Shown: piece by piece, positions 5,401 through 64,000 of the stretch
How the letters are laid out: the number at the start of each line of letters is the position of its first letter
How positions within the stretch are numbered: the first letter of the stretch is position 1
Source: an uncultured bacterium
GTDB taxonomy: Bacteria; Omnitrophota; Omnitrophia; Omnitrophales; Aquincolibacteriaceae
Direction of reading: 5' to 3'
Length of the DNA stretch: 64,000 nt
Assembly (NCBI GenBank): GCA_964511315.1
Contig: CAZEFF010000002.1
Coordinates: forward strand, 2,230-66,229
The notes under the pieces: model-generated
Told to the model about the DNA's origin: nothing
Databases searched by the model: none
The model's input: only the letters and a program-made list of their open reading frames with translations
Translations under genes and position numbers: made by a program

Positions 5401-6062
5401 GCACAGTCAACCTTCTCGCGATTGAAGAATATGAAGAACTCAAACAGCGGTATGATTTTTTAATGACCCAGCAGAAAGATCTGGATGATGCCCGGGAACA
5501 GCTCATGGAAACCATCCGCAAAATCAACCGTACGACAAAAGGCTTATTTGAAGAAACATTTGCCAACGTCCAAAAAACTTTTCAGGAATACTATGAAACG
5601 CTTTTCCGCGGCGGCCAAGCAAAACTGGTGCTTGTCGATGAATCCAATCCGCTTGAATCCGGCATCGATATCCATGTCCGTCCTCCCGGGAAAAAGCTGC
5701 AGCACATCAGCCTTCTCTCAGGGGGTGAAAAAGCCCTGACCGCTTCGGCATTATTGTTCGCTTTATTTAAAATCAAACCTTCTCCGTTCTGCGTCCTGGA
5801 CGAAGTTGACGCCCCGCTTGACGAAGCGAACGTCGACCGTTTCATCGCGGTCTTAAAAACATTCCTCGAATCCTCACAGTTTATTATCGTCACTCACAAC
5901 CGCAAAACAATCGCGATGGGTGACGCGCTCTACGGGGTAACGATGCAGGAAGCCGGCGTTTCTAAGCTCGTTTCTGTTAAAGTGAACCCCACGGCCAAAA
6001 CCGCCGAACCCGCGCAAACTGAACCTGAAACAAATTCCGAGCAAGCCCCAGTCAACGCTTGA
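2442..6062 (+). CDS. smc: chromosome segregation protein SMC
   Basis: 1206 aa; N-terminal Walker A (GPNGCGKSNI), long coiled coils, a hinge, a C-terminal signature LSGGEKALTA and Walker B CVLDEVDAPLD. Confidence 0.9.
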   Translation: MRLKKLELLGFKSFADRTEIIFDEGVTCIVGPNGCGKSNISDSIRWVLGERSAKLLRGAKMEDVIFNGTDFRKPTALAEVSLTIDNTDRGLPIEYNEVTLTRRLYRSGESEYLINKTVCRLKDIQDLILDTGIGSSSYSMIEQGRIDYILNADADERRFLIEEAAGISKYKVKKEEAIRKLERTEENRLRLNDIIHEVQKNIQYAERQAQRAAKYQQELEKLKNLELARAFTELARLTSEKNTLNESRSTIHQRIAELTEKIETSKTDQEALNSKLQEIAGHYHEEESRRFGFQSKWDQNQQQLGFNQEKRLEMAARRGQIEQEELQLNERIKKSEEEVASKRHELSLLDIEQGKAAEALKTSEDTLQKIESEIQSLRATIEKVKAEAFQSASKIAQVRNEYHRVNAFLESSQEQKKKSEAGSERLKQETQGWESKKLSAQQQSQLLIERLAQLDEQKNTLENEIEQSLNQRKEEEKSLSDLERSLHEKQTRLSLLIEIDEAARASESAILTDLSEEDRNLTHTLRELLTVQQGFEWALESALDTFARSFVAENFDIAKKLTQKMSAQKSIAMGLLIQSSPQNPTAAASQKPSHPQISKALTDVVQIKAGYEPVFGSFLQNVYLADQPLSEFNIEELLQLSQSCKILTPDGFTLGHANQIFFHNSGLTSEDNFFKRNAEITALNREVQQTAEQLILAKQSLTAREAFAAELQKKKETVESEHLDSMIKKESFESLLSGMQERIVSYQRELELTGFEYDELQTQYEAGLAQQKVLEARLQECETFETQIRARQDELSKTLETSERGRSDAVKLLAETHARFETYRDRTNFLTESVNLLLEHDGRDRSRLNLLAEELEKHTRRLEELDKEDLEVQSEQEKIQSQLRDCEVAVEIIRQEKEAVEKQLGEARDHHQTLLDEERSYQGKLHQFEIKEMDLNFQEKTIYERMEQTYRIQLSTLKPEDYSMGDLAPEQLEEKINHLKQRVESLGTVNLLAIEEYEELKQRYDFLMTQQKDLDDAREQLMETIRKINRTTKGLFEETFANVQKTFQEYYETLFRGGQAKLVLVDESNPLESGIDIHVRPPGKKLQHISLLSGGEKALTASALLFALFKIKPSPFCVLDEVDAPLDEANVDRFIAVLKTFLESSQFIIVTHNRKTIAMGDALYGVTMQEAGVSKLVSVKVNPTAKTAEPAQTEPETNSEQAPVNA

Positions 6063-7381: not shown

Positions 7382-10300
7382 ATGAGTTTTAAAAAGAGTC
7401 ATCACCGCGCTTGGCGAAAGCGCCTAGCCCTCTTTATTACCATCATTTTTACCGCGCAAAGCCTAGGCTTAGCGCCTCATAACCTCTGCGCTCGAATGGA
7501 GGCAGAGGATATCCCTTTACCTATTTCTGAACCCTCGGCAATTCAGATTCCCCCGGAATTTGGACGCATCGATGAAGTGTTCTCTGGAAGCAATAAAAAA
7601 TTAATTATTCTTATTCAGGATGCTCACAGTATTCCAGAAGCGCAGCGCAGCATCCAAAAAACCATAAGCCATCTCAGTAAAACATACGCGCTTAGCGGCA
7701 TCGCACTTGAAGGAGCATCCGGCCCTCTTGACCCCGTCATGCTGCGAAATTATCCCGATCGGGAAAAGCTTTCCGATGTACTTGCTGAGCTTACGCGCAA
7801 AGGGGAGCTAAGCGGTTCCGTAGCCGCGCTCATTGAGGACGGAATCAAGACACCCGCCTTTGGCCTTGAAAATTGGGAGACATACCTTGAAGGCTTGAAT
7901 CTCTATCGTGAAGCTCTGACCCGTCAAGAAAGGGCGGCACGCAAAATCCACGTCTTGCAAAAACGTCTCGCCCGGGAAAAATCTGCCGCCTACTCAAAAA
8001 AGCTTCTGGCTGCGGATGATATTCGGAACCGTGTCGAGAGTAATGAGGTTGATTTTCTTCACGCACTGCTCGAAATTTCAAAAATCAGCGCCGTTCCCGA
8101 AAACACGCCGCTAAGTCTCATCTTAAATCAGCTCAACCGGGGCCCGGCGGCATCGCAAACTTCGAGAAATCTTGAAAATCTATTTGGAGAGCTGGCTTCT
8201 TATTTTACTCAGAAAAAAAATTCCGAGGCTTTATCGTCGCTGGCGGAAAAACGTCAGAGCTATCAAAGCAGTGAGCTTGATCTCTACGCATTCGCCTCCT
8301 ATTTGCGTCATCTCGCTGTTTCCGAATCCATCCCGACAATTTCCTTAACACCGGATGTTATCGAGCTTGCTGAAGTTTATGACAAACTGAATCAAATAAA
8401 AGGGTCAGCGGTCTACGCGGAATTTGAAACTCATCTTAACCGCACGATCCACGGCCTTATTCAAACCAGCAAACAAAATGAACTGAACCGTCAATCAGAA
8501 ATACTTCGCTTCGAAAATAAGCTCAACCAGCTCCGGCTAACACGCTCAGAACTCAAGCAGCTTGAGACATCTTCATCGGATATAAATAACCGCGGTGCGT
8601 ATCCATCCTTAAACCTTGAGCTAGCGGCTCATTCAGCATTCTATCGGAATACCCTCAAACGGGATCATGAGCTGTATGAAAACTTTAAAAAAATGGCATC
8701 GGAGAAAAATACGCCATCGGCATGGATTATTGTCGCAGGGGGATTTCACAGCGCTGGACTCCTTGAACAGGCGCGTAAGGACGGATTCTCCTTTGTTAAA
8801 ATCTTGCCGGCAATTCGAAGCCTCCCCGAACATGATTTCTACACGGATCACATGGAAGGAAAAGTCAGCTGGGTAAATCAAGAAAGCTTGGATTCAGGCC
8901 GCGGCCTTTATGAAATCTTCTTAACTTTTGCCATGTCGGCTCTTTTTAAGGATTCATCAGAAAATGAAGCTGCATCAGCCTTGCGCGTCTGGCGTCAAAA
9001 TATTATACGAGACCTATCTGAAATAAAGCGTTTAAACGAATCTTCATCTTACACAAAAATAATTGACGCTGAGTTAACAGCGCGGAAATCCGCGTTCTTA
9101 AAGAGAAACTGGATCTCAAATATTAACCGTTTTACTTCGCAGATGGACGAATTAGAAAAATCGGCCCGCCTAAACAAACAGAATGTTTTGGATATTTTAA
9201 AAACACCCGCGATTCCGGCTCTCTTAACAGGCCCAGGGGTCTTGACTCGAAAGGGAATTCCCGCATCAAGGAGCAGGTCAGAAGCGCGCACCGCGGCTTG
9301 GCGCGAGTCTGATGAGCCGCTCAGCCGTAAAGACGTCATATTCGCTATGGGGGAAGATTTTACCGTTCACCTTCCAACAGGGCAAACCTATAAGCTCCCG
9401 AAAGGCCTCTGGGGAAAATACTTCTCTCGGCAGCCCGCTCAGCAGGAAATACGGGAAGTTTTGCCGCCAAAAAGTTCTGAGCCCATCATTCTTATTGAGA
9501 TCACAGTGCCTAAAGCGGAAAGCGATGAGCTGACTGCCGAACTTAAAATTCTCGGGGATGCTGTCACTGAACTTTTCCCCGGCTATAAATACGCTTTCCT
9601 GCCTCCGGAAACAGCCGGAACATCTCAAACGCAGTTTTTAAAATTTTACAAATTTGATATTCTGACCGGAGACACGGCGGCACCGCCGGTGATTCTCGAA
9701 AATGCTCCGAGTATTATCACTGCATCCGCAGGCAATAGCACCAAACCCGCCGGCCCAAATGAAAATCCAATCCTAAACCGCCGAAATTTCTTAACCTTTA
9801 TCAGTCTAAGCGTGATTGGGTCAATCGCCGCATTCACGTTCTGGCCTCGGACAAAGAAGCCTTTGGCTGTACAGCCTGAAACCGTTTCTAAAATTAACCC
9901 GGCAGGAAAAAAACTCGATGAAATCGATTCAGGTGATAGGGAAGCGGTCAAAATTCACTTATCCGGAATTGGCAATTATTTGAGAGAAGGCGGCATTCAT
10001 CCCGCGACCGGCATTGCCCGTGATCACGTTCAAATTGACCGGCTTTCGGGAAAAATTTCGGGAACACCCGCCAATTATTCTTCCCCGTCAAAACTATCAG
10101 TTTATTTACCCTTTTTACTCAAAATTATTCAAGGCGAAGATGTCTTAGCGCTTACAGGAATTTCAAAACGGGAAGCTGTCGAACTTCTTTCAAAATCACT
10201 TTTTTCACTCCGCCGCTTCCAAGTCGAAGGTTCGGGCAGTCACGAAGTTCAGTCGGGATTATTTCCCTGGTTTGAAATGAAAGACGATGGATCCCTTTCG

Positions 10301-13300
10301 CTTGTCCGATATTCCGGCAAGGCAACAATCCCGATCCTTGATAATGGCCAGCTTTCATTCGCGCTCGCGGCCATCGCGGGCGGACTATGGGATTCAAGAG
10401 ATCCTGAACTCATTGAAATTCAAAAAACCGCCCGGGATATTCTTGATCACCAGCATTATGAGGAAATGGTTAACCCCGCGACCGGATTGCTGTTTGAAGA
10501 ATGGGATCTGGAAGGCATGAGGGGAATTGAAAAACCAGGACACGCGAATCTTTGGACCGAATGGATGCTTGCGGTTTATTGGGCTCATTTAAACGGACAT
10601 ATCACTAACGACGCTTGGCTGCGGTTTAATCATGAAATCTATTTTCAGCAGGCAGAAAATAAAGAAATTCCGATGCCCCAAGGATATATTTTTTCGTTTC
10701 ACGAAACCGGATGGCCGCTCCTGTATATACCGGCGATGAAATCAGACCTCGCGAACCTTTATTACAATTATCTTTGGCTTCACGCGAAGCATGCCCGGCA
10801 AAATGGTCTTCCGGGATTTGTCGGCACGGAATACTCTCCCGCGGGGCAATATGCCCAGGCCGGCATTGATATTACAAAGTACGGCAACGGCGTTGTGCTC
10901 GGGCGGATTGATGATTCGTCCTTAAGCGCCCCGTACGCGACAGCATTCGCGGCGCTTATCTATCCTTCCGTGGGATTCAAATGGTCCAATCGTTTGCTGT
11001 CACAAAAGGGCGTTGTCGACAAATACGGGCCCGTGACCTCTTATAAGGTGGATGAAGGGGCATCGCACATTCATACTGCCGACACGACTTTCGCAACCGC
11101 GCTCGCTTTAAGCGGCGGGGTATCCAGAGAAGTCGAAGTTTATTTCAATCGCGCCCGCGGATTATCCGAAAATGATTTGCTCGCGCCCTTCAATCAGCAA
11201 GCCGCGCAAATTCAAAACACATCAAATATTTCGAAATTTGAAACGGTGTCAGGCATACCCCTGCCTCCAAAAAATCTCGGCGCGGTGAAAAAGCCGAAAA
11301 ATATGAAATTGGAAGGTAAAACGGTATCTCTTTTCTCGAAACTCCAAACGGGTCATTGGCACGGAGAAAACGTGAGCGTTCCGGAGGCTTATTGGGATGA
11401 AAAAATGGACAGCACGCAGTCATGGATTTTTCATAAAGGTGAAATCATCGCGGACTACCAGGTAGGCGCAACCATGAAAGATTATGCCTGGCTCGGCACG
11501 CCCGTAGATCCCGTACCGATTGCCGGAGCAAAATATCTTTCGTTTTGGATTCCCGCCGATTTAAAAGAGTACTGGGAAATTGAGCTCAAGCACATCGATC
11601 AGCAGCTTACGTCTTCAAAAATCATCGTGAACACACAGGATACTGCGGTAACTTATGAAACCTCGAAGGATGGAAAATGGCGCCGCCTGCTTATCCCAAT
11701 TAAGCCGTCACCGCATACCGAGTCTGAAACACTTAATTATCTGGCGGTTTCAATTCCAAGCCCATTAACCTCTCCCTCAAAGCGGGAGGGCGCCATCCGG
11801 ATCAAAAATATACAAATCCATTCTGAAAAACCCACGCATGAAAAAGAGTCATTTTCTAAATCCGTTTCATCCGAGGCCGCCTCAGAAGATGGTTCGGTAG
11901 GAAAAAAACCGACCCATGAAACAAAAATTTCGGAACCTTTCTTTTTACTTCTCCGGAAAGAAAAAAGGAACCTTACCAACGGCGACTTACAAAACATCAT
12001 TTTCCCAAGCGGGGTACTGCGCATCGAGCCGCGCGGTCACTGGGCCGGAGAATCGATAAGACTAAGCCCCAATGTCTCCGATTTACGCTACATCTATATG
12101 CGGGTAAGGGCGCCTAATGGAAAAGCCGTTTTTAAAATTGAAATCCCCAATTTAGTACCTATCAAAAAAGAAATACGGATCAATTCAAAAAATTGGCAAA
12201 CGCTTGAAATCGCGCTGGATCAGCCTTTCGCGGCGAAAGATCTGACTTACTTCGCGGTTTCTGACGCGACCGATGTGATAGAGCTGGCTGATTTCCAATT
12301 ATCCGCGAAGGCTATTCCAGGCGCAGAATTATTCGCCTCAACCGATTACTCACCGTCATATTCAGGAATTTACGCGTATGCTTCGAATACTGCCGGCGCT
12401 CATTCCGCTCAAAAAATCGCCGCCGGAGAACTTAACCGTTTAGCGTCACCGCTACCGCTTTCAAATATCCTCCTCGCGAAAGCAGGCCGGTCCGAACTCC
12501 GCACTTCACCTTATTCCGCGAATGTTCTGGCAATCCGGGATTATTTAGTCACCAAAAACGGCAGTACCCAAACAAATCCGGTCGCGGACGCTCTGAAAAA
12601 CGCGATTCATTTGGGGCTTGGCGCGTTTTCAAAAGAAATCGAAACCCTCGTGACCCAGCTGCATAGAGAAAACCGCGCTCACGGAGCTCTCGCAAAACTC
12701 CTGAGCGACCTGATGTCGGAAGATGAAACGACTCTGCGCCAAATTATCGCCTTTGAGCGGATTCTTGATGATAAGCGCGCTTCTGAGCCTTTATCAAGCG
12801 CGGAAGAATGGTCGTGGAAAATTATTAAAAGCCGGGGGATCGGCGATATTTTTTTCGCGAGTCCGGAAGCAGCACCGTTTCTTTCCATGGCAGGCGGAAT
12901 GGCTCCGGCCGTATGGGGACAAGCCAAACTGCTTGCTGATACCGGCGTCAGCGTCTCAATCGTTTCGTTTCTTTATGATCAGGATCAAAACAAAAAACAT
13001 AAATCCGCCCAAGAGCTCATCACAAGCGGCGTCCGTCACGATGGAAAAAAATACGCCTTAAAGAAACTTGAAATGTCACTGCGAATTCCAATTGGGCCAG
13101 TGGTCGAGGAAGCCTTCGGCCACCGGCAAGTCATCGCGGGGCCTCAATCGATACGCGCGGATGTCTATACTTTTGAAGCGGAGGGCGTCCGCTTTTATCT
13201 GCTGCATGAGCCTGAATTGGGAAACAAACTTTATCCTCCCAGCGACTCCATTGACAGCTTTAAGCGTACAATTTTTCTTTCCCGGGGAACACTTGAAGTC

Positions 13301-16300
13301 ATAAAGAATCTCGATGAATTCCCTGATTTCATTGTCTCTCACGATTGGATGGCTTCGTTAATTCCCGCTTATCTAAAAACAACTCTCGCAGGAGTAAACT
13401 CTCTCAGCCATATTCCCGCCGCAAAAAACTATTCCTCGGATGAACATTTCAAAAGCACCAAACCGCTGATGTTTTTACACAACACCTTAAGAGACTACCA
13501 GGCCGCTTTTTACAACAATATGGAAACCGATAAATTTGACCGCAAACGCCGTATTGAACTTTTCCCGCTGTCAGGCCTAGGCGACGAGCATTTCTTTGGA
13601 TTTCAGGATTCGGGCGATGGATCACGCATCAATCTTGCAAAAGCCGGTGCTTTTCATGCCGCGGGAGTATGGCACCCAAGCCTTAAGCACGGAAATGAAT
13701 TACTCGTCCCCGAAACAGGGGAAACGCTTGAATCACTTATGCGTTCGAAAATGCCTTATAATTTCGGCATCAGCAACGCGGTCAATCTTCCCGATATTTG
13801 GTCGGAAATCGATCATATCGGAAAAGACCTGCTCAAATGGGCCCGCGAAAATTCAATCCCGGCTTCAGCGTTAGGATTTTCTGAAGAAATTGAGAACGCT
13901 GCCACCGCGCCATTTACAAAAGATAATTTTAAAAAAGCCCTTCCTTTTTACCGCGCACTTTCAAAACGCTATTTACAGCGCCAGCAAGGGATGAAAGAAG
14001 ATTCGCATGTCATCCTTTCAGGTTTTGTCGGACGCGTCGCGAAGCAAAAGGGAGTCGCGCTCATCCGGGATGCCTTGGTCAGCTATCTTGATCAAACCGC
14101 GGATCAAAACACTCAGCTTTTTATCGGCGGACCAGTAGCCCAAGGAGACAGAGACGCGGAAACGTTTGAAGCGCTTGTCAAAGAACTCGCGGATAATCCA
14201 AAGTACCGCGGCAGGATCGGAGTCAAAGCAGGCGCCAAAGAATTTTTAGATAAAAGAGAAGTCGTGCTTTCATTCTTGGCCATGGACATTTTTCTTATGC
14301 CCTCCGAAAGAGAACCTGGCGGCATCACACAAATTGAAGCATTGGCCATCGGGGTTGCGTTTATCGTCGCTCATTTTATCGGCGGTATCGCGGACACAGT
14401 TACACAATACAACCCCGCGGAAAAGAAGGGGAACGGCTTTTTCTTTCAGCATTTCAGCCGGGATGAATATTTGCGGGCCTGGATCGAAGCCACCGCGACA
14501 ATACATAACCACCCTGATATTGCTGCCAAAAATATTATCGAAAATGCCTTTGAAGCCGCTTTTGACTGGAGCCGTCAAACACCGCTTTACTTGACCATGC
14601 TCAGGTACGTCGCGGGCGGTTGGGTCGAAGGCGATCCGCAAGCCGAGAATGAGATCAAACTGCTGTCTCGAATTTTGGTGGGTAATCCTAAAATTCGTCC
14701 TATTTTAAAAGGCCCAGGACATTCCCTGCAAATCATTGATTCCGAATTCAAAAACCATCCGATTGTGGCCGACCTTTTTGACGGACGGAAAATTGATATT
14801 CAGCTTTTGCCCAATGACATCCCAAGTGGAAATTTTTCCTATGATTTGGCCAACCGCGTATCCTCCTGGAGCAGCGTTAAAAAATCCGATATCAACTTTT
14901 CCGGACCTCCCATTAATTTTCCGTGGGAATCCTATGAACAAACCCTCAAGAAAGAACCCACTCACATCACATTTTCTTACCACAATCTGTACTTCAATGA
15001 CGGGTTTGTCGCCTTCCGGAATCCAAAAGGACTCTACTTTCGGAGAGATGAACCTTTCCGCCGGCGGACATACAGCATGTTTGTTGTCTGGAATAATGGC
15101 GAAGCCACAGCGGAAAAAATTCGCTTCACAAAAAAAGACGGGCAAACACGCGGCAAAGTCCGAGTCGTACGCGCTCAGGCGATTAATCAAAACGTGGATC
15201 TCGGCCCAAAAATAAAATTTGCCATTTTTGGACAGCAGATCATTTCAGAAGGAAAAGCCGTAAAAATTCAGGACCTCGCGCATCAATTTCCCGATATTTT
15301 TCATCTTTATCAGCTTCCTCAATTTCCGCCGGCAGCCGCCAGTGATAAATACGGTCCCGCTATCGGGATCCGTGAACTTTTGAGCGGCCCCACACACGCG
15401 ATTGAGGCATCTGACCGGCCCGTGCTTTTGGAAACTCTGAAAAACGGCGGCCTATCCGAATTTAATCTGCAGCCTTATTTAGGAATGGGCTATTCAATAC
15501 AGGACATCCGGGAAAAGGCTCTCGCTCCGCGGGGCTACAAAGAAGTCTCGGCAGCCATTCCCGGAAATCAACTTGCCGCGGGGGAGTATTTCATTCAGGA
15601 CCGCACTCTTCACATCCGTCTGAAACCGGCGCTTTATCCGCATAACCTAATCGGCATTACCGAAGATGGAAAAGTTGTATCGCTCGTGCTGACCGGGGAT
15701 AAAACCATTGGCGAGGGCTATGCTGTTTCCGATATCGCGAGTCTGGTGAACGATAAATTGAGCCATTTAAAAATCCGCGATCTTTTCCTCCTTGCCAATA
15801 GCGGTGACGCGTTTCGCCGAAAAAATGGAGCGTTTACCCATACGAGCGGCCCAGCTCCTTATACTGCGGGCACCGCCATGATCAGCTTTGCACTTAGCAC
15901 CCCTCGTTCAGAGATCCGTAAAGCCCCGGCAGACCAATCCAATCTCCGCCGCGCGGTAAAAATTACAGCACTCGCGCTGGCTCCTGATGAAATTTTGGGC
16001 GGACACTTTCAGCGGCCTCAAAAAAATGAAATCCAATTTGCGATCCAAGAAATCACCAAACTCCCGCTGTCATCAACGCCGAAATTGCACGATGCGCTTA
16101 TTCATTACAGCTCGTTCGTTTTAAATCAAGAGACAGGCAGCTGGCTTGAAAAACAGCTGCCCATGGACAGCGTCAATACTCCTTTCATTAGTCCCGCGGC
16201 AAGACGCTTAGCCATGACAAAACTACCCAAGACAATCGCAGGAGAAGGTCTTATCTTAGATGAATCATTCGTACTGAAAGGCGGGCTTGCGTTTATTCCG

Positions 16301-16669
16301 ACATTGTTTTTAGATCAGCCGGTTGTTATTCTTACACAAAATAAAGAAATCGAAGCTGAGGTGCAGCGTTTCAATGAAAGGTATCATTTAGCCGTTCCAA
16401 CCGTAAAGACTGTTCCTGATGCCATTATTGCGGTTTCAAAAACTTCGCTCAATAAAAGCAGTCTTACCGCATCAAAACTTGTTCCGCGCGCCTTACTTGG
16501 ACAGGATTACAATTGGAGTATTCGGTCCGCCCTGATTAAGCAATTAGGGGATCAGCAAGTTTCGATTCTCTCAAGTTCCATGGTTGAGTGGATGGCCCAG
16601 ACAGCCGGTGTTTCAGAACTCTTAAGTCAGCTTGCTGAAACCTACTCCCGTATCGCCAAGTCCGCGTAA
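7382..16669 (+). CDS. giant (3095 aa) multidomain protein: signal peptide, TraB/GumN-like region, internal TM helix, DUF3131-like (alpha/alpha)6 glycoside-hydrolase-like domain, beta-rich region, glycogen/starch-synthase-like GT5 glycosyltransferase domain, uncharacterized C-terminal ~650 aa
   Basis: A single uninterrupted ORF. The N-terminus has a signal peptide (RLALFITIIFTAQSLGLA). TraB/GumN-type motifs are present (LIILIQDAHS ... WIIVAGGFHSAGLL). An internal hydrophobic helix follows an RR motif (NRRNFLTFISLSVIGSIAAFTFW), about nt 9778-9846. The GT5-like domain shows EAAPFLSMAGGMAPAVWG near its start, and later FLMPSEREPGGITQIEALAIGVAFIVAHFIGGIADTV (FLMPSE..PGG matches the glycogen-synthase E-x7-E region). 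Confidence 0.6.
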   Translation: MSFKKSHHRAWRKRLALFITIIFTAQSLGLAPHNLCARMEAEDIPLPISEPSAIQIPPEFGRIDEVFSGSNKKLIILIQDAHSIPEAQRSIQKTISHLSKTYALSGIALEGASGPLDPVMLRNYPDREKLSDVLAELTRKGELSGSVAALIEDGIKTPAFGLENWETYLEGLNLYREALTRQERAARKIHVLQKRLAREKSAAYSKKLLAADDIRNRVESNEVDFLHALLEISKISAVPENTPLSLILNQLNRGPAASQTSRNLENLFGELASYFTQKKNSEALSSLAEKRQSYQSSELDLYAFASYLRHLAVSESIPTISLTPDVIELAEVYDKLNQIKGSAVYAEFETHLNRTIHGLIQTSKQNELNRQSEILRFENKLNQLRLTRSELKQLETSSSDINNRGAYPSLNLELAAHSAFYRNTLKRDHELYENFKKMASEKNTPSAWIIVAGGFHSAGLLEQARKDGFSFVKILPAIRSLPEHDFYTDHMEGKVSWVNQESLDSGRGLYEIFLTFAMSALFKDSSENEAASALRVWRQNIIRDLSEIKRLNESSSYTKIIDAELTARKSAFLKRNWISNINRFTSQMDELEKSARLNKQNVLDILKTPAIPALLTGPGVLTRKGIPASRSRSEARTAAWRESDEPLSRKDVIFAMGEDFTVHLPTGQTYKLPKGLWGKYFSRQPAQQEIREVLPPKSSEPIILIEITVPKAESDELTAELKILGDAVTELFPGYKYAFLPPETAGTSQTQFLKFYKFDILTGDTAAPPVILENAPSIITASAGNSTKPAGPNENPILNRRNFLTFISLSVIGSIAAFTFWPRTKKPLAVQPETVSKINPAGKKLDEIDSGDREAVKIHLSGIGNYLREGGIHPATGIARDHVQIDRLSGKISGTPANYSSPSKLSVYLPFLLKIIQGEDVLALTGISKREAVELLSKSLFSLRRFQVEGSGSHEVQSGLFPWFEMKDDGSLSLVRYSGKATIPILDNGQLSFALAAIAGGLWDSRDPELIEIQKTARDILDHQHYEEMVNPATGLLFEEWDLEGMRGIEKPGHANLWTEWMLAVYWAHLNGHITNDAWLRFNHEIYFQQAENKEIPMPQGYIFSFHETGWPLLYIPAMKSDLANLYYNYLWLHAKHARQNGLPGFVGTEYSPAGQYAQAGIDITKYGNGVVLGRIDDSSLSAPYATAFAALIYPSVGFKWSNRLLSQKGVVDKYGPVTSYKVDEGASHIHTADTTFATALALSGGVSREVEVYFNRARGLSENDLLAPFNQQAAQIQNTSNISKFETVSGIPLPPKNLGAVKKPKNMKLEGKTVSLFSKLQTGHWHGENVSVPEAYWDEKMDSTQSWIFHKGEIIADYQVGATMKDYAWLGTPVDPVPIAGAKYLSFWIPADLKEYWEIELKHIDQQLTSSKIIVNTQDTAVTYETSKDGKWRRLLIPIKPSPHTESETLNYLAVSIPSPLTSPSKREGAIRIKNIQIHSEKPTHEKESFSKSVSSEAASEDGSVGKKPTHETKISEPFFLLLRKEKRNLTNGDLQNIIFPSGVLRIEPRGHWAGESIRLSPNVSDLRYIYMRVRAPNGKAVFKIEIPNLVPIKKEIRINSKNWQTLEIALDQPFAAKDLTYFAVSDATDVIELADFQLSAKAIPGAELFASTDYSPSYSGIYAYASNTAGAHSAQKIAAGELNRLASPLPLSNILLAKAGRSELRTSPYSANVLAIRDYLVTKNGSTQTNPVADALKNAIHLGLGAFSKEIETLVTQLHRENRAHGALAKLLSDLMSEDETTLRQIIAFERILDDKRASEPLSSAEEWSWKIIKSRGIGDIFFASPEAAPFLSMAGGMAPAVWGQAKLLADTGVSVSIVSFLYDQDQNKKHKSAQELITSGVRHDGKKYALKKLEMSLRIPIGPVVEEAFGHRQVIAGPQSIRADVYTFEAEGVRFYLLHEPELGNKLYPPSDSIDSFKRTIFLSRGTLEVIKNLDEFPDFIVSHDWMASLIPAYLKTTLAGVNSLSHIPAAKNYSSDEHFKSTKPLMFLHNTLRDYQAAFYNNMETDKFDRKRRIELFPLSGLGDEHFFGFQDSGDGSRINLAKAGAFHAAGVWHPSLKHGNELLVPETGETLESLMRSKMPYNFGISNAVNLPDIWSEIDHIGKDLLKWARENSIPASALGFSEEIENAATAPFTKDNFKKALPFYRALSKRYLQRQQGMKEDSHVILSGFVGRVAKQKGVALIRDALVSYLDQTADQNTQLFIGGPVAQGDRDAETFEALVKELADNPKYRGRIGVKAGAKEFLDKREVVLSFLAMDIFLMPSEREPGGITQIEALAIGVAFIVAHFIGGIADTVTQYNPAEKKGNGFFFQHFSRDEYLRAWIEATATIHNHPDIAAKNIIENAFEAAFDWSRQTPLYLTMLRYVAGGWVEGDPQAENEIKLLSRILVGNPKIRPILKGPGHSLQIIDSEFKNHPIVADLFDGRKIDIQLLPNDIPSGNFSYDLANRVSSWSSVKKSDINFSGPPINFPWESYEQTLKKEPTHITFSYHNLYFNDGFVAFRNPKGLYFRRDEPFRRRTYSMFVVWNNGEATAEKIRFTKKDGQTRGKVRVVRAQAINQNVDLGPKIKFAIFGQQIISEGKAVKIQDLAHQFPDIFHLYQLPQFPPAAASDKYGPAIGIRELLSGPTHAIEASDRPVLLETLKNGGLSEFNLQPYLGMGYSIQDIREKALAPRGYKEVSAAIPGNQLAAGEYFIQDRTLHIRLKPALYPHNLIGITEDGKVVSLVLTGDKTIGEGYAVSDIASLVNDKLSHLKIRDLFLLANSGDAFRRKNGAFTHTSGPAPYTAGTAMISFALSTPRSEIRKAPADQSNLRRAVKITALALAPDEILGGHFQRPQKNEIQFAIQEITKLPLSSTPKLHDALIHYSSFVLNQETGSWLEKQLPMDSVNTPFISPAARRLAMTKLPKTIAGEGLILDESFVLKGGLAFIPTLFLDQPVVILTQNKEIEAEVQRFNERYHLAVPTVKTVPDAIIAVSKTSLNKSSLTASKLVPRALLGQDYNWSIRSALIKQLGDQQVSILSSSMVEWMAQTAGVSELLSQLAETYSRIAKSA

Positions 16670-25831: not shown

Positions 25832-26111
25832 ATTTTTTTTCGCGCGGGTCCTGCCGCGAGAATCCCCAGGTCTTCCTCAAATTTTTCCGGGTCCTGTCAG
25901 CAAGGTTTCCGCAGGGACTCCTCAAAATACTTTTCTTATGAAGCAGTCATTCTTCCTTATCTTTTTTCGTCCAGAAAGTTAACTCTCATCCAATTCTCAC
26001 AGCATGCGGCTTTAAGAAAAGTATTTTTCCTCTCCCTTTACGGAACCTCGCTGCCACCCGCAAAACACTCCTAACTAAAAATGTTAGCCCCCTTACTTTC
26101 AAGAGCGAAGC

Positions 26112-26242
26112 ATCATACTTGCCTGAGAGAAGCTCCCGCAATCCTTTGAAGCTTGGTTTCCCATCAGGGAATTCAAAGGATGAGGGGCAGCGGGCAGCCG
26201 CCGCTGGAGCGGCTGAACCGCGATTCTCGGGGCAAGTATGAT
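26112..26242 (+). ncRNA. candidate structured RNA / conserved palindromic element, copy A (upstream of hisI)
   Basis: A 12-bp closing helix (ATCATACTTGCC / GGCAAGTATGAT) encloses conserved blocks CCTG..GAAGCT..CTCCCG.AA.C, TGAGGGGCAG, a hairpin loop CGCTGGA and CC.CGAT. Three internal helices co-vary with copy B at 33998-34153. Strand of any transcript unknown. Confidence 0.5.
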
Positions 26243-26259
26243 CGCGAGTGTGTATCTAG

Positions 26260-26288
26260 TTGACACACTTTAAGAATACAGGCATACT
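26260..26288 (+). promoter_or_regulatory. sigma70-like promoter upstream of hisI-trp cluster (TTGACA-17-CATACT)
   Basis: -35 TTGACA at 26260-26265 and -10 CATACT at 26283-26288, about 35 nt upstream of the hisI ATG. The -35 is embedded in an inverted repeat AGTGTGT..ACACACT (26247-26269). Confidence 0.4.
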
Positions 26289-33847: not shown

Positions 33848-33985
33848 CGCGTGCTAAGTATTGCCGCCGGCATCGTTCAGCCCCAAATCAAATCCGGTTT
33901 GAGGGGGCTTCACTCGGCATTCGCTCGACTTCGCCATTCCATTGCGAAGTCGGCTCATGACGTGCCTCTGGCAATACCCAGCACG
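33848..33985. repeat. nested inverted-repeat element C upstream of dnaK
   Basis: 17-bp imperfect outer inverted repeat (GCGTGCTAAGTATTGCC / GGCAATACCCAGCACGC) enclosing a perfect 9-bp inverted repeat (CGACTTCGC..GCGAAGTCG) and AGCCCC..GGGGCT. Confidence 0.4.
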
Positions 33986-33997
33986 CATCTTAAAAAT

Positions 33998-34153
33998 CCG
34001 TAATTGTGAAAACCTGCCTGAAGCTAGCTCCCGGAACTCGTTGAAGATTGGTGCCCGCGTTTTTTGCGGGATTCAACGAGTGAGGGGCAGAGGTTGCTCC
34101 TCGCTGGAAGGAGCAAACCTCGATAGCGGAAGGCAGGTTTCAAAAATTACGGG
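33998..34153 (+). ncRNA. candidate structured RNA / conserved palindromic element, copy B (upstream of dnaK)
   Basis: 21-nt closing helix with an internal loop (CCGTAATTGTGAAAACCTGCC / GGCAGGTTTCAAAAATTACGG); the same conserved blocks and CGCTGGA hairpin loop as copy A, with compensatory changes in helices. Confidence 0.5.
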
Positions 34154-34296: not shown

Positions 34297-34312
34297 TGGC
34301 ATGCCAATTGTA
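34297..34312 (+). promoter_or_regulatory. sigma54-like (-24/-12) promoter candidate upstream of dnaK
   Basis: TGGCAT-N5-TTGTA versus consensus TGGCAC-N5-TTGCA, with correct GG/-12 spacing; about 50 nt upstream of the dnaK ATG; lies next to an NtrC-type activator gene. Confidence 0.4.
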
Positions 34313-36282: not shown

Positions 36283-36394
36283 CTTCAGCGACAACGACTC
36301 GGACGAGAGCTTCGGGCTCTCGCCGAGCATCCTTAGGCATTGGCCTAAGGGTGAGGTAATCGACGAAGATACCAAGAAAGATAAGTAAGCCTAG

Positions 36395-36433
36395 GGTGCC
36401 AGGTACCCCAAAAAGTGCCTGGCACCTGTTTTT
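36395..36433 (+). terminator. rho-independent terminator after dnaK
   Basis: GGTGCCAGG..CCTGGCACC stem followed by TGTTTTT. Confidence 0.6.
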
Positions 36434-36534
36434 CCCCCTAAGGAAACAGCCGTTTTTGCCGTCGAATAGTTTCAATGCCCGGACAGTCTAATACCTGTAA
36501 GACAAACCCCAGCAATACAACCAAGGAGCCCAAA

Positions 36535-58181: not shown

Positions 58182-59171
58182 ATGGATAGTGCGATTCAGG
58201 AAATTAACCGGAAAGTCCGCGACGCGAACACAATTCTTAAAGATCTCTTGCGCGAAATCGGCAAAGTCATCGTCGGTCAACAGTATTTGATCGAACGGCT
58301 CTTGATCGCGCTTTTGGCCGACGGCCACATCCTTATTGAAGGGGTGCCGGGTCTTGCTAAAACGCTGTCGGTAAAAACCCTGGCGCGCGCGGTCAACACA
58401 AAGTTCCAGCGTATTCAGTTCACACCGGATCTTTTGCCCGCGGATTTGATCGGCACGCTGGTTTACAATCCGAAAGACCATACCTTCACCACAAAAAAAG
58501 GGCCGATCTTCTCCAATATTATTCTCGCGGACGAAATCAACCGCGCGCCTTCCAAAGTTCAGAGCGCCCTGCTTGAAGCCATGCAGGAACATCAAGTCAC
58601 GATCGGAGAAACCACTTTTCCTCTCGCGGCGCCTTTTATCGTGCTCGCGACTCAAAACCCGATTGAACAGGAAGGCACTTATCCGCTGCCCGAAGCCCAG
58701 GTCGACCGTTTCATCATGAAGCTTGTTGTCACTTATCCGACAAAAAAGGAAGAAAAAGAAATTATGGAACGCATGTCGATGGGTAAAGACATCGATGTTC
58801 ATCCCGTTATGGAACCCGAAAAAATTCTTGAGCTGCGCAAACTCATGAATGAAATTTATGTGGATGAAAAAGTCAAAGATTACATTCTTGATCTTGTGTT
58901 CGCGACTCGCGACCCGGATGCCTATAAACTATCCGCTCTGAAACCGCTCATATCGTACGGCGCTTCACCGCGCGCGAGCATTATGCTGACACGGGCGGCA
59001 AAAGCTAACGCCTTTATGCAGGGCCGCGGCTATGTCACTCCGGATGATGTTAAGCAAATCGGCATGGACGTTCTTCGCCACCGCGTCCTTCTGACATACG
59101 AAGCCGAAGCCGAAGATATGACTTCTGAAAAAATTGTTCAGAAAATTTTTGATCAGATTGAAGTGCCGTAA
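58182..59171 (+). CDS. MoxR-family AAA+ ATPase
   Basis: 329 aa; Walker A GVPGLAKT; Walker B ILADEINRA; MoxR-specific C-terminal region. Confidence 0.9.
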   Translation: MDSAIQEINRKVRDANTILKDLLREIGKVIVGQQYLIERLLIALLADGHILIEGVPGLAKTLSVKTLARAVNTKFQRIQFTPDLLPADLIGTLVYNPKDHTFTTKKGPIFSNIILADEINRAPSKVQSALLEAMQEHQVTIGETTFPLAAPFIVLATQNPIEQEGTYPLPEAQVDRFIMKLVVTYPTKKEEKEIMERMSMGKDIDVHPVMEPEKILELRKLMNEIYVDEKVKDYILDLVFATRDPDAYKLSALKPLISYGASPRASIMLTRAAKANAFMQGRGYVTPDDVKQIGMDVLRHRVLLTYEAEAEDMTSEKIVQKIFDQIEVP

Positions 59172-62072: not shown

Positions 62073-64000
62073 TGCAATTTTACAGCCCATCCGCCCTCAT
62101 TTTTTTATGGCTCATCCCGGTTGTGCTCGGCATTTTTTGGTTTTCCCAAAAACTTTGGCTGAAACGCCTCGCGAAAATCGGACAAATCCAAACCCTCCAG
62201 ACCAAACTGATGCCGGCCTACCGCGCCTCCGAATGGTCGATACGGGCGTTTTATCTTGGCCTCGCTTTTTTATTCGCCATCCTGGCCTTATCACAGCCTC
62301 AATGGGGTGAAGAAAAAAAGAAAGTTCAGCGCAAAGGAGTCGACATTGTTTTTCTTTTAGATACGTCGCTCAGCATGCTGTCGGAAGACATCAAACCGAA
62401 CCGTTTGGATAAATCACGGATGGAAATCAAATCTTTCGTGCAGGAACTCAAGGGCGACCGCGTGGGCATGGTGGCTTTTGCCGGATCAAGCTTTCTCCAA
62501 ACACCGCTGACGCTCGATTACTCGGCTTTCATGCTTTTTCTTGACGCGGTAAAGCCCGGATATATCCCTGATCCCGGAACATCCATTGAACGGGCTGTTT
62601 ATATGGCCGCTCAATCCTTTCCGAAAGAAAATACCAAACACAAAGCTATCATTCTTTTCAGCGATGGGGAAGACCATGAAGGCGGCGTGGAAGCCGCGAT
62701 TGAAGCCGCGAAAAAAGCCGGCATACGTATTTATTCGATTGGAACCGGCACTCCCAACGGTGATCCCATTCCTTTAAAGGATGAGAACGGCCGCAAAAGC
62801 GGCTTCAAGAAAGATTCCGCCGGCCAAGTCGTGATCACTAAATTGAATCAGCCGCTTATGGAAAAAATCGCCAAAGAAACCGGCGGCATTTATCTGCCGT
62901 CAACGCCGGCAGAAGATGAAATCAGAATTATTCTTAAACACATGGAATCGCTCGGCCAAAAACAATTTAAAGAGCAAATGGTCGCTGAGAAAGAAGATCA
63001 TTTTCAGTTTTTTGTCTTTTGGTCGCTGGTTTGCCTCATTGCTGAAATGCTTGTCAGCCGCAGGAAGAAAATTAAATTGGAGCCGGCCTTAGCTATCCTG
63101 CTCGCGTTTTTCATGTTTACCGGATTTTTAGATACCACCAGCGGTCTCAACAAAAAAGCTAATGACCAGTTCGCGCAGAAGAAATACCAATCCGCTGAGG
63201 AGCTGTACCAGAAAGCCCTTGTAAAAAATCCGGACGATCCGAGTTTACGCTATAACTTAGGAACGACCAAATACCAAACCCAAAATTATCAAGACGCTGA
63301 CAAAAATCTCCAGAAAGCACTGGCTACAATCAAGGATCCAGAACTAAAAGCCAAAGCCCTTTATAACTATGGAAACACACAGTACCGTCTTGGAAACTTT
63401 GAAAAAGCGATTGATTCGTACAAAAAGGCCCTTGAAATCAACCCGAAGGATCAGGACGCCAAGTACAATCTGGAATTTCTTCAGAATAAAAAAGGTTCGA
63501 TGGATAAAAAGAACCAAGATAAACAAAATCAGAAACAAAATAAAAATCAAAACCAGCAAAACCAAAATCAGAATCAGCAGCAAAATCAACAGCAGAACCA
63601 GCAGCAGAATAACCAGCAAAATCAAAACAATCAGCAGCAGCAGCAAAATCAGCAACAGAACCAACAGCAGAATCAGCAAAACCAACAGCAGAACCAGCAA
63701 CAGCAGCAAGATCAACAACAGAATCAGCAGGATCAACAGCAGAATCAGGACCAACAGCAGCAAGATCAGCAGCAAAATCAAGACCAGCAAAAACAGGATC
63801 AGCAGAATCAAGATCAGCAAAACCAGGGCCAGGATCAGCAAGACCAGCAAAAAGATCAGGGCCAAGAAGATAAGCAGGATCAAAAAGAAGGTTCTCAGGG
63901 CGAGAAAAACAAAGAACAAAAGGAACAAGACAAGCAGGATCAAGAGAGTCAGCAGCAAAAAGAACAGGAACAAAAAGAAAAAGAGCAAGAACAGCAGGAT
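62072..64000 (+). CDS. BatB-like vWA protein fused to TPR (BatC-like) region and Q/N-rich low-complexity tail (3' partial, runs off window)
   Basis: ATGA overlap with the batA stop. vWA MIDAS (DTSLSM ... SDGED) is followed by TM segments, TPR-like repeats (AEELYQKALVKNPDD, ALYNYGNTQYRLGNFEKAIDSYKKALEINPKD), then more than 150 aa of Q/N/D-rich repeats. No stop codon before the window end. Confidence 0.7.
   Translation, partial: MQFYSPSALIFLWLIPVVLGIFWFSQKLWLKRLAKIGQIQTLQTKLMPAYRASEWSIRAFYLGLAFLFAILALSQPQWGEEKKKVQRKGVDIVFLLDTSLSMLSEDIKPNRLDKSRMEIKSFVQELKGDRVGMVAFAGSSFLQTPLTLDYSAFMLFLDAVKPGYIPDPGTSIERAVYMAAQSFPKENTKHKAIILFSDGEDHEGGVEAAIEAAKKAGIRIYSIGTGTPNGDPIPLKDENGRKSGFKKDSAGQVVITKLNQPLMEKIAKETGGIYLPSTPAEDEIRIILKHMESLGQKQFKEQMVAEKEDHFQFFVFWSLVCLIAEMLVSRRKKIKLEPALAILLAFFMFTGFLDTTSGLNKKANDQFAQKKYQSAEELYQKALVKNPDDPSLRYNLGTTKYQTQNYQDADKNLQKALATIKDPELKAKALYNYGNTQYRLGNFEKAIDSYKKALEINPKDQDAKYNLEFLQNKKGSMDKKNQDKQNQKQNKNQNQQNQNQNQQQNQQQNQQQNNQQNQNNQQQQQNQQQNQQQNQQNQQQNQQQQQDQQQNQQDQQQNQDQQQQDQQQNQDQQKQDQQNQDQQNQGQDQQDQQKDQGQEDKQDQKEGSQGEKNKEQKEQDKQDQESQQQKEQEQKEKEQEQQD
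63480..64000 (+). repeat. imperfect CAG/CAA/AAC trinucleotide-type repeat tract (encodes poly-Q/N)
   Basis: More than 500 nt dominated by cagcag/aatcag/caaaac units; produces a spurious poly-Leu ORF on the opposite strand. Confidence 0.8.

Follow-up and report, generated by a model that had tools for sequence, protein, structure and literature searches.

We analyzed a 64,000-nucleotide (nt) stretch of DNA, hereafter called the window, from a metagenome-assembled genome of Candidatus Omnitrophota, an uncultured phylum. The nearest non-self homologues of its DnaK are approximately 85% identical. The window contains the genes hisH, hisA, an unknown open reading frame (ORF), hisF, hisI, trpE, trpG, trpD, trpC, trpF, a histidine kinase gene, a sigma-54 response regulator gene and dnaK, and this gene order is kept in five syntenic relatives (L228, which is GCA_964385615.1, and L229, L230, L231 and L285). 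Two copies of a non-coding element lie between these genes on the + strand: copy A (26112 to 26242) upstream of hisI, and copy B (33998 to 34152) upstream of dnaK. An earlier reading of the letters alone (the sequence-only reading) had proposed the two as a candidate new structured RNA. Its boundaries for copy A and its start for copy B were right, and copy B ends at 34152, not at 34153.

The hisF-hisI spacer is 492 nt long in the window versus 78 to 182 nt in the five syntenic relatives, and the spacer between the response regulator gene and dnaK is 526 nt versus 179 to 259 nt. The element was absent at both sites in all five. Because these relatives have short spacers in the same gene order, copies A and B sit in lineage-specific insertions. 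Each insertion starts either directly at the upstream stop codon or no more than about 12 nt from it and stops just before the native promoter block. The two spacers had been described as the only long ones of the region; they are the two longest, but spacers of 442, 353 and 316 nt are present too.

The hisI promoter is native and sigma-70-like (TTGACA-17-CATACT, 26260 to 26288, + strand) and begins 18 nt downstream of copy A. At least four relatives without the element also have TTGACACA...CATACT in front of hisI. The promoter lies inside a conserved GTGTGT...TTGACACAC inverted repeat (26245-26268 in the window and 2343-2368 in L228), which may be an operator. The dnaK promoter, about 145 nt downstream of copy B, is of the sigma-54 type, with -24/-12 elements TGGCATGCCAATTGTA / TGGCATGCCAATTGT (34297 to 34312, + strand). 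The promoter scan contained no sigma-54 model, and the call is a consensus match read from the sequence. TGGCA(C/T)-N5 followed by TTG (CTG in L231) stands upstream of dnaK in six of six relatives (L228, L229, L230, L231, L285 and L286), and its counterpart in L228 is at about 9943-9958. The idea that each copy lies just upstream of a promoter-like sequence is right for copy A and needs correction for copy B. In the window, the dnaK promoter is directly downstream of the histidine kinase gene and the gene for the NtrC-type sigma-54 activator, and no CIRCE-like element was seen near it by eye. These features suggest that dnaK is under enhancer-dependent control in this Omnitrophota clade.

Copies A and B are similar to each other well above the null expectation. 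Their local alignment score was 64 against a null maximum of 27, and the combined motif TGAGGGGCAG-N-GG-N8-CGCTGGA had two exact occurrences in the window and none in 100 shuffles. The differences between the copies were clustered along the alignment (runs test p = 0.005), which we read as blocks of approximately 92% identity alternating with saturated stems. The count of transitions to transversions was 25:27.

When folded alone, copy A formed a multi-branch structure (z = -6.1) and copy B formed the same structure (z = -7.7); in each case, none of 200 shuffles was as stable. RNAalifold of the two copies together gave 36 consensus pairs, of which 14 were changed on both sides and none was broken. 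All alignment cells (100%) were paired, compared with 35-49% when the partners were slid, and the 14 double changes compared with 0-3 in the slid controls; none of 500 shuffles reached the observed values. The sequence-only reading had claimed a common fold with compensatory helix changes, and all the helices that it listed were correct (36/36 pairs, 14 of them double).

In this fold, a long closing helix (P1) leads through an internal loop (J1/J6) and a short helix (P1b) to a three-way junction. The first arm of the junction consists of Px (GC-U-CCC/GGGGC with one bulged U), a G(N)A/GA internal loop and the hairpin P2, and the second arm is the bulged hairpin P3. Two of the blocks that had been taken as conserved and unpaired, AGCTCCC and GAGGGGC, pair together as the conserved helix Px. 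Nor were unpaired strands conserved in general between A and B: 68% of the unpaired columns were identical versus 60% of the paired ones, which is not significant (Fisher p = 0.41). The CGCTGGA hairpin loop is identical in A and B, as had been noted, but it is not family-wide, and the P2 bulge is likewise confined to these two copies.

All segment coordinates of A and B were checked by script. In copy A (+ strand), P1 is formed by 26112-26123 and 26231-26242, J1 (TGA) is 26124-26126, and P1b is formed by 26127-26131 and 26224-26228. Px pairs GC-U-CCC (26132-26137, with the bulged U at 26134) with GGGGC (26184-26188). J2 (GCA) is 26138-26140, P2 is formed by 26141-26150 and 26172-26181 with a distal bulge and P2b at 26151-26171, and J3 (GA) is 26182-26183. 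J4 is the single A at 26189, P3 is 26190-26221 with its CGCTGGA loop at 26202-26208, J5 (GA) is 26222-26223, and J6 (GG) is 26229-26230. In copy B (+ strand), P1 has 21 positions with small internal loops (33998-34018/34132-34152), and P1b pairs GCTA (34023-34026) with TAGC (34124-34127). Px is 34027-34032/34084-34088 with the bulged U at 34029, P2 is 34036-34045/34072-34081, J4 is the A at 34089, and P3 is 34090-34121 with its CGCTGGA loop at 34102-34108; J1, J2, J3, J5 and J6 read TGAA, GGA, GA, GA and GGAA. A Logan contig from the same organism (L121) has one extra A in the P2 3' strand of copy A (AAAA at 589-592 versus AAA at 26175-26177 of the window). The extra base reflects either strain variation, in which case it adds a bulge, or an error in the homopolymer.

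A search for homologues with a covariance model had been proposed as a check together with the sequence-only reading. The model built from A and B (R1), which scored copy A at 147 bits and copy B at 162 bits, was used with filters off, and so was a second model built from A, B and C (R2). These searches yielded a third member, C, and a probable fourth, B0. Member C is in L228 (12330-12444, + strand; R1 score 30.1 bits, E about 3e-7), and searches of the relatives at default filters missed it and returned no member. Its own minimum free energy (MFE) fold reproduced the architecture (z = -4.5). C lies in a lineage-specific insertion of about 520 nt. This insertion separates the dnaK terminator from the next gene and is made up of a 95-amino-acid (aa) ORF and C; L230, L231 and L285 have 87-109 nt at the same place. 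In the alignment of A, B and C, which was fitted to the model and is therefore biased towards structure, 98% of the cells were paired and 23 of the 36 pairs had double changes, compared with 0-4 in the slid controls. The ORF at 12020-12307 of L228, immediately upstream of C within the insertion, has no recorded Pfam match, and a called 56-aa gene that overlaps C (12336-12506) is probably spurious.

B0 (33849 to 33986, - strand) is head-to-head with copy B, 11 nt apart. The R2 match to it (33980-33852, 15.1 bits, E 0.05) was the top non-self match in 95 kb and was found on the minus strand only. The stretch is strongly structured (z -6.8), and the MFE fold of the minus strand reproduced the architecture and was 8.4 kcal/mol more stable than that of the other strand. 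B0 keeps J1 (AGA), P1b (GGCA/TGCC), Px (CG-U-CAU/AUG-c-CG, with the bulged U at 33960), J2 (GA), J3 (GA), J4 (A, 33914), J5 (GA) and J6 (GG). Its P2 and P3 sequences are unrelated to those of the other members, and its P1 has 17 pairs including two G.U pairs. When B0 was read on the plus strand, only the general layout was found and none of the junction nucleotides was shared, whereas the minus strand fits all of them. MAFFT could not align B0 with A and B. The model match and the predicted fold point to B0 as a probable member of the family of A, B and C, in the opposite orientation to B. No further member was found with filters off in L229, L230, L231, L284, L285 or L286. It had also been envisaged that homologue searches might return only exact-copy palindromic repeats; the further members are instead diverged and co-varying.

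Manual segmentation of the four members showed what they have in common: an NGA loop strand, the bulged U, the G(N)A/GA loop, and the A and GA/GG junction strands. In the order A, B, C and B0, J1 is TGA, TGAA, GGA and AGA; J2 is GCA, GGA, GCA and GA; J5 is GA, GA, GG and GA; and J6 is GG, GGAA, GCA and GG. J3 is GA and J4 is A in every member. The 5' strand of P1b is GAGAA, GCTA, GGCA and GGCA, and that of Px is GC-U-CCC in A and B, AC-U-CUC in C and CG-U-CAU in B0; all these variants are fully compensated on the partner strand, and the bulged U is present in four of four members. The stem sequences of P1b, Px, P2 and P3 are almost wholly replaced among the members with pairing retained, so that base-pairing is kept by compensatory substitution across A, B, C and B0. 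P1 has 12, 21, 9 and 17 positions in the four members. Of P1, A and B have only the inner 6 bp (CYTGCC/GGCARG) in common, and the outer arms are unrelated. The CGCTGGA loop of P3 and the P2 bulge with P2b are found in A and B only. The family measures approximately 110-155 nt and has been seen so far only in one clade of Candidatus Omnitrophota.

A descriptor of the junction signature matched A, B, C and B0 and two coding sequences in 366 kb of Omnitrophota DNA (both strands counted), and it had 17 matches in 4.6 Mb of unrelated loci. B0 had informed the descriptor, and its match is therefore no independent test of B0. By eye on the segmentation, the core motifs of the K-turn, the hammerhead ribozyme and attC sites were not conserved, and complementarity between the P3 loop and Px was inconsistent between copies.

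Both single-stranded DNA and RNA could adopt this fold. For A and B, either strand and DNA as well as RNA parameters gave an equally significant fold. G.U pairs are nearly absent from the roughly 100 bp of helices in these two copies (one in the consensus table and one in each MFE fold, at helix ends), and C and B0 have a few on the element's own strand. That strand was 4-8 kcal/mol more stable than its complement in all four members, which indicates that one defined strand has been selected to fold but does not separate RNA from single-stranded DNA. A scan of both spacers found no sigma-70-like promoter or intrinsic terminator of its own flanking either copy. No U-tract follows P1 in A or B, and no GC-rich hairpin with a U-tract was found on the + strand of either spacer. 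The same scan detected the canonical terminator after dnaK, which indicates that it works in this genome.

The sequence-only reading had taken conserved single strands and co-varying stems as the mark of a functional RNA rather than a DNA repeat. This does not follow from covariation alone, since REPINs, which are mobile DNA, also have conserved blocks and compensatory hairpin changes (PMC3116915). In addition, when replication switches template, perfect stems can arise or be restored in the DNA itself (PMC8794818). Further evidence against the distinction comes from the absence of the insertions in five relatives, the different site of member C, the inverted orientation of the probable member B0, the position upstream of the native promoters, the palindromic neighbors, the folding as single-stranded DNA, and the lack of an own promoter or terminator. 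A coding function was rejected: ORFs across the elements are short, their frames are not conserved, and the stem changes are non-synonymous. A protein search with a spurious 72-aa ORF found nothing, and ARAGORN found no tRNA or tmRNA gene.

The insertions contain other palindromic modules as well. The rest of the hisF-hisI insertion, module X (25832 to 26111), is structured (fold z -4.5) and does not belong to the A/B family, having no significant similarity to A, B or B0. Module X shares GGGTCCTG / CAGGACCC-type segments with the expanded 635-nt spacer between the response regulator gene and dnaK of L286. The blastn matches were 73% over 82 nt (E 5e-5) and, inverted, 68% over 98 nt (E 4e-4), at 5523-5598 and 5735-5828 of L286, a different spacer from that in the window. 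This homology identifies a second structured, palindromic family at non-orthologous sites. In the closest relative found (L284, GCA_020049755.1; regulator 92% identical), an unrelated long palindrome, GACACAAGGACACA...TGTGTCCTTG (1377-1452), stands immediately after the same regulator stop codon, and the contig ends inside it. These sequences suggest a fast turnover of hairpin modules at the site between the regulator gene and dnaK. A third module, the 190 nt that follow dnaK in the window (36283-36474), contains three near-perfect hairpins (z = -7.7), of which the last is the canonical terminator (36394-36427 and a T-tract); its first part is homologous and syntenic with 7992-8098 of L286. 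Evidently, structured insertions of several families build up in the intergenic spacers of this clade.

The explanation that we favor, with about even confidence, is that A and B are diverged copies of a dispersed, probably mobile, non-coding element family that is selected for its fold and recognized by a factor encoded elsewhere. The element would be a small non-autonomous mobile or duplicative element with REPIN/BIME-like behavior, inserted in one lineage between an upstream stop codon and an untouched native downstream promoter. A trans-encoded factor would recognize the folded single strand and not the stem sequence. The stems would then be free to change provided that they pair, and the small invariant core would hold the fold together. 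Mobility, a single-stranded intermediate and a trans-acting enzyme are what we infer from the conserved fold and its covariation, the invariant core, the insertion polymorphism between genomes, the member at a different site and the clustering with other palindromes. The copies lie inside same-direction gene arrays and are therefore probably co-transcribed, so that a side effect at the RNA level, such as 3'-end protection or processing, is possible.

Several points weigh against this explanation. By eye, no target-site duplication was seen at the flanks of A, B and C, the exact ends of which are not fixed by any empty site in a close strain. The element has no conserved termini, as the outer P1 differs in sequence and length, and the copies within the genome are far more diverged than typical copies of miniature inverted-repeat transposable elements (MITEs) or REPs. 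Host copies can be counted only within 64 kb of the host genome, and a Pfam scan of the 39 ORFs of the window found no transposase, RAYT (Y1 HUH), integrase or reverse transcriptase. The insertion is unchanged in two other samples with this organism and thus gives no sign of recent movement; one of them (L121) spans copy A with one indel, and the other (L232) reaches no further than 96 nt past hisF, inside module X. The organism appears in SRR20074300 and SRR16481187. Branched junctions whose unpaired positions are invariant and rich in purines are more usual in functional RNAs than in the transposition substrates known so far. Of the four members, three run in the same direction as the flanking genes, and the greater stability of the element's own strand in every member also belongs on this side.

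A REP unit is a short, imperfect palindrome that has a conserved GTAG head, and a genome usually carries tens to hundreds of almost identical units next to a RAYT gene. Like the REPIN/REP-BIME systems (RAYT, TnpA-REP), the family described here is non-coding, intergenic and dispersed at non-orthologous sites, occurs as single and as adjacent inverted units (here B0 and B), and folds into hairpins as single-stranded DNA or mRNA. The conserved blocks with compensatory changes that keep the hairpin are another common feature (PMC3116915). Unlike them, the element is 110-155 nt long with a three-way junction, its copies are very diverged, the aligned members have no conserved GTAG, and no RAYT is encoded in the window. 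The family behaves like REPINs and BIMEs but has none of their defining sequence features. A second comparison is with MITE-like palindromic repeats (ERIC, Correia/NEMIS, RUP and BOX). MITEs have conserved terminal inverted repeats, target-site duplications and randomly decaying copies. The element shares with such repeats a size of approximately 100-150 nt, an intergenic location, long terminal pairing and plausible co-transcription. However, its outer P1 arms agree in neither sequence nor length, its internal helices are kept by compensation, and neither conserved terminal inverted repeats nor a target-site duplication was found.

The main rival, which we regard as possible and hold tentatively, is that the family is a functional structured RNA of a new class whose gene copies were duplicated and dispersed. 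It could be a scaffold for proteins, a small RNA that acts in trans or a small ribozyme that cleaves itself. The invariant junction and bulge nucleotides would then be the active or binding core, and the stems would be its scaffold. The invariant purine-rich unpaired core in four members, with all helices co-varying, fits this well. So do the distal parts (the P2 tip and the P3 loop), which vary freely as in small ribozymes and riboswitch-like cores, and the consistently more stable own strand, on which C and B0 carry their G.U pairs. Rfam 15 (4227 models) had no match at gathering scores in the whole window and none at E <= 10 over A, B, B0 and C, in agreement with the earlier view that the element belongs to no known riboswitch or ribozyme class, so if it is an RNA, it is a new one. 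Orphan structured RNA motifs of Rfam ('Gene; sRNA' and 'Cis-reg') are likewise intergenic, co-varying, multi-stem, of unknown function and found in one lineage. Unlike most of them, the element has no conserved gene association, behaves as an insertion and matches none of the 4227 models. Also against an RNA function are the lack of a flanking sigma-70-like promoter or intrinsic terminator at A or B, the near absence of G.U pairs in these two copies, and the fact that DNA parameters and the complementary strand give folds just as good. Moreover, the element is absent from most related genomes in the sampled regions and sits among other, unrelated palindromic insertions.

It is unlikely that the element serves the transcripts upstream of it, those of the hisF operon and the kinase-regulator operon, as a 3'-end module. 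In that case its very stable structure would stop 3' exonucleases or read-through and insulate the separately regulated promoters of hisI and dnaK, in the manner of REP and ERIC in the mRNAs of enterobacteria. The position of the insertions, from the stop codons to the native promoters, is what such a module would have, and neither spacer has a canonical terminator. Furthermore, dnaK itself is followed by a multi-hairpin module, and L284 has a different long palindrome right past the same stop codon. An element that acted purely by its stability or as a roadblock, however, could do without a three-way junction and without invariant nucleotides in it. B0 points the opposite way, five relatives have short spacers at the same sites, and no U-tract follows P1.

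Quite unlikely, too, is a new class of small RNA with catalytic or some other activity, such as a self-cleaving ribozyme based on the three-way junction with its bulged U and GA-rich loops, that spreads in the genomes of Omnitrophota as a selfish or domesticated unit. Small self-cleaving ribozymes (hammerhead, twister, twister-sister, pistol and hatchet) also have a small invariant unpaired set at a multi-helix junction, co-varying stems and variable distal parts, and they are patchy, multi-copy, non-syntenic and in either orientation. The resemblance is one of pattern only, as no Rfam ribozyme model matched at E <= 10. By our own reading, the CUGANGA/GAAA core of the hammerhead is absent, and the junction strands here are 0 nt, A and GA/GG.

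We consider it very improbable that the element is a recombination site of folded single-stranded DNA (attC-like or dif-like) or another DNA site, such as a protein-binding array or an enhancer for a sigma-54 activator. It does fold well as single-stranded DNA with almost purely Watson-Crick pairing, and its layout of stem, internal loop and stem, its extrahelical base and its variable distal structure loosely recall attC sites. Integron attC sites likewise conserve structure far above sequence, with a long imperfect stem, an extrahelical base that marks the strand and a variable terminal structure. However, by our reading of P1 in A, B, C and B0, its base has no core sites (R'' RYYYAAC and R' GTTRRRY). 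Neither an integrase nor a cassette array was found in the window, and the copies are flanked by core housekeeping genes whose synteny is conserved. For a site bound as double-stranded DNA, four nested helices would not have to co-vary, and copy A is not near a sigma-54 promoter.

A cis-regulatory leader of hisI and dnaK (riboswitch, attenuator or RNA thermometer) is barely credible: A and B do lie upstream of a gene and in its orientation, but A ends 18 nt before the hisI -35 element and B about 145 nt before the dnaK promoter, so that both are upstream of conserved promoters and neither is in a 5' untranslated region, hisI and dnaK are functionally unrelated, five relatives with the same genes and promoters have no element at either site, C lies past dnaK and ahead of an unrelated gene, and B0 is inverted.

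For annotation, the long spacers before hisI and dnaK are insertions, not regulatory leaders. The family was previously undescribed: it is not in Rfam 15, and a full-text search of the papers available for Omnitrophota or Omnitrophica with non-coding RNA, ribozyme, repeat or hairpin found nothing relevant. It gives a concrete model to search with, built on a three-way junction and about a dozen invariant nucleotides, that can be run across Omnitrophota genomes and metatranscriptomes to distinguish a new structured RNA from a new structure-dependent mobile DNA. It also illustrates that conserved blocks with co-varying stems are not sufficient proof of a functional RNA, and that default cmsearch filters can hide genuine diverged members.

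Searches further afield returned no additional confirmed member. A loose genome scan for TGAGGGGCAG-N{8,22}-CGCTGGA gave at least 120 matches in unrelated phyla; R1 confirmed none of those listed, and this does not show absence from GTDB genomes. A metagenome scan with an exact 25-base pattern, which C would fail too, gave one high-GC coding false positive, and three scans of viral contigs gave no true member when followed up with covariance models at default filters. These negatives are weak because exact patterns would miss C and the models were run on those loci with default filters. The locus L224 gave one candidate match at default filters (E 0.05). A blastn search of plasmids and phages with copy B found nothing.

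Several other features of the window were recorded. The MoxR-DUF58-BatA operon is about 1-2.5 kb past dnaK in L228, L230, L231 and L285, and it starts at 58182 in the window. About 21 kb of extra genes lie in the window at about 36.9-57.2 kb, encoding RhuM/Fic, DUF1016, TPMT, OYE, Tag glycosylase, EF-P and GST proteins, and the same stretch has a minus-strand ORF of 1132 aa without a Pfam match. A giant ORF of 3095 aa occupies 7382-16669, and in Pfam it matched nothing but two glycosyltransferase domains in its middle part (Glyco_transf_5 and Glycos_transf_1). A long low-complexity stretch at 63503-63990, rich in Q, N, D and K and apparently coding, runs towards the window's end and has CAG/CAA/AAC-type trinucleotide repeats of 9-15-nt periodicity.

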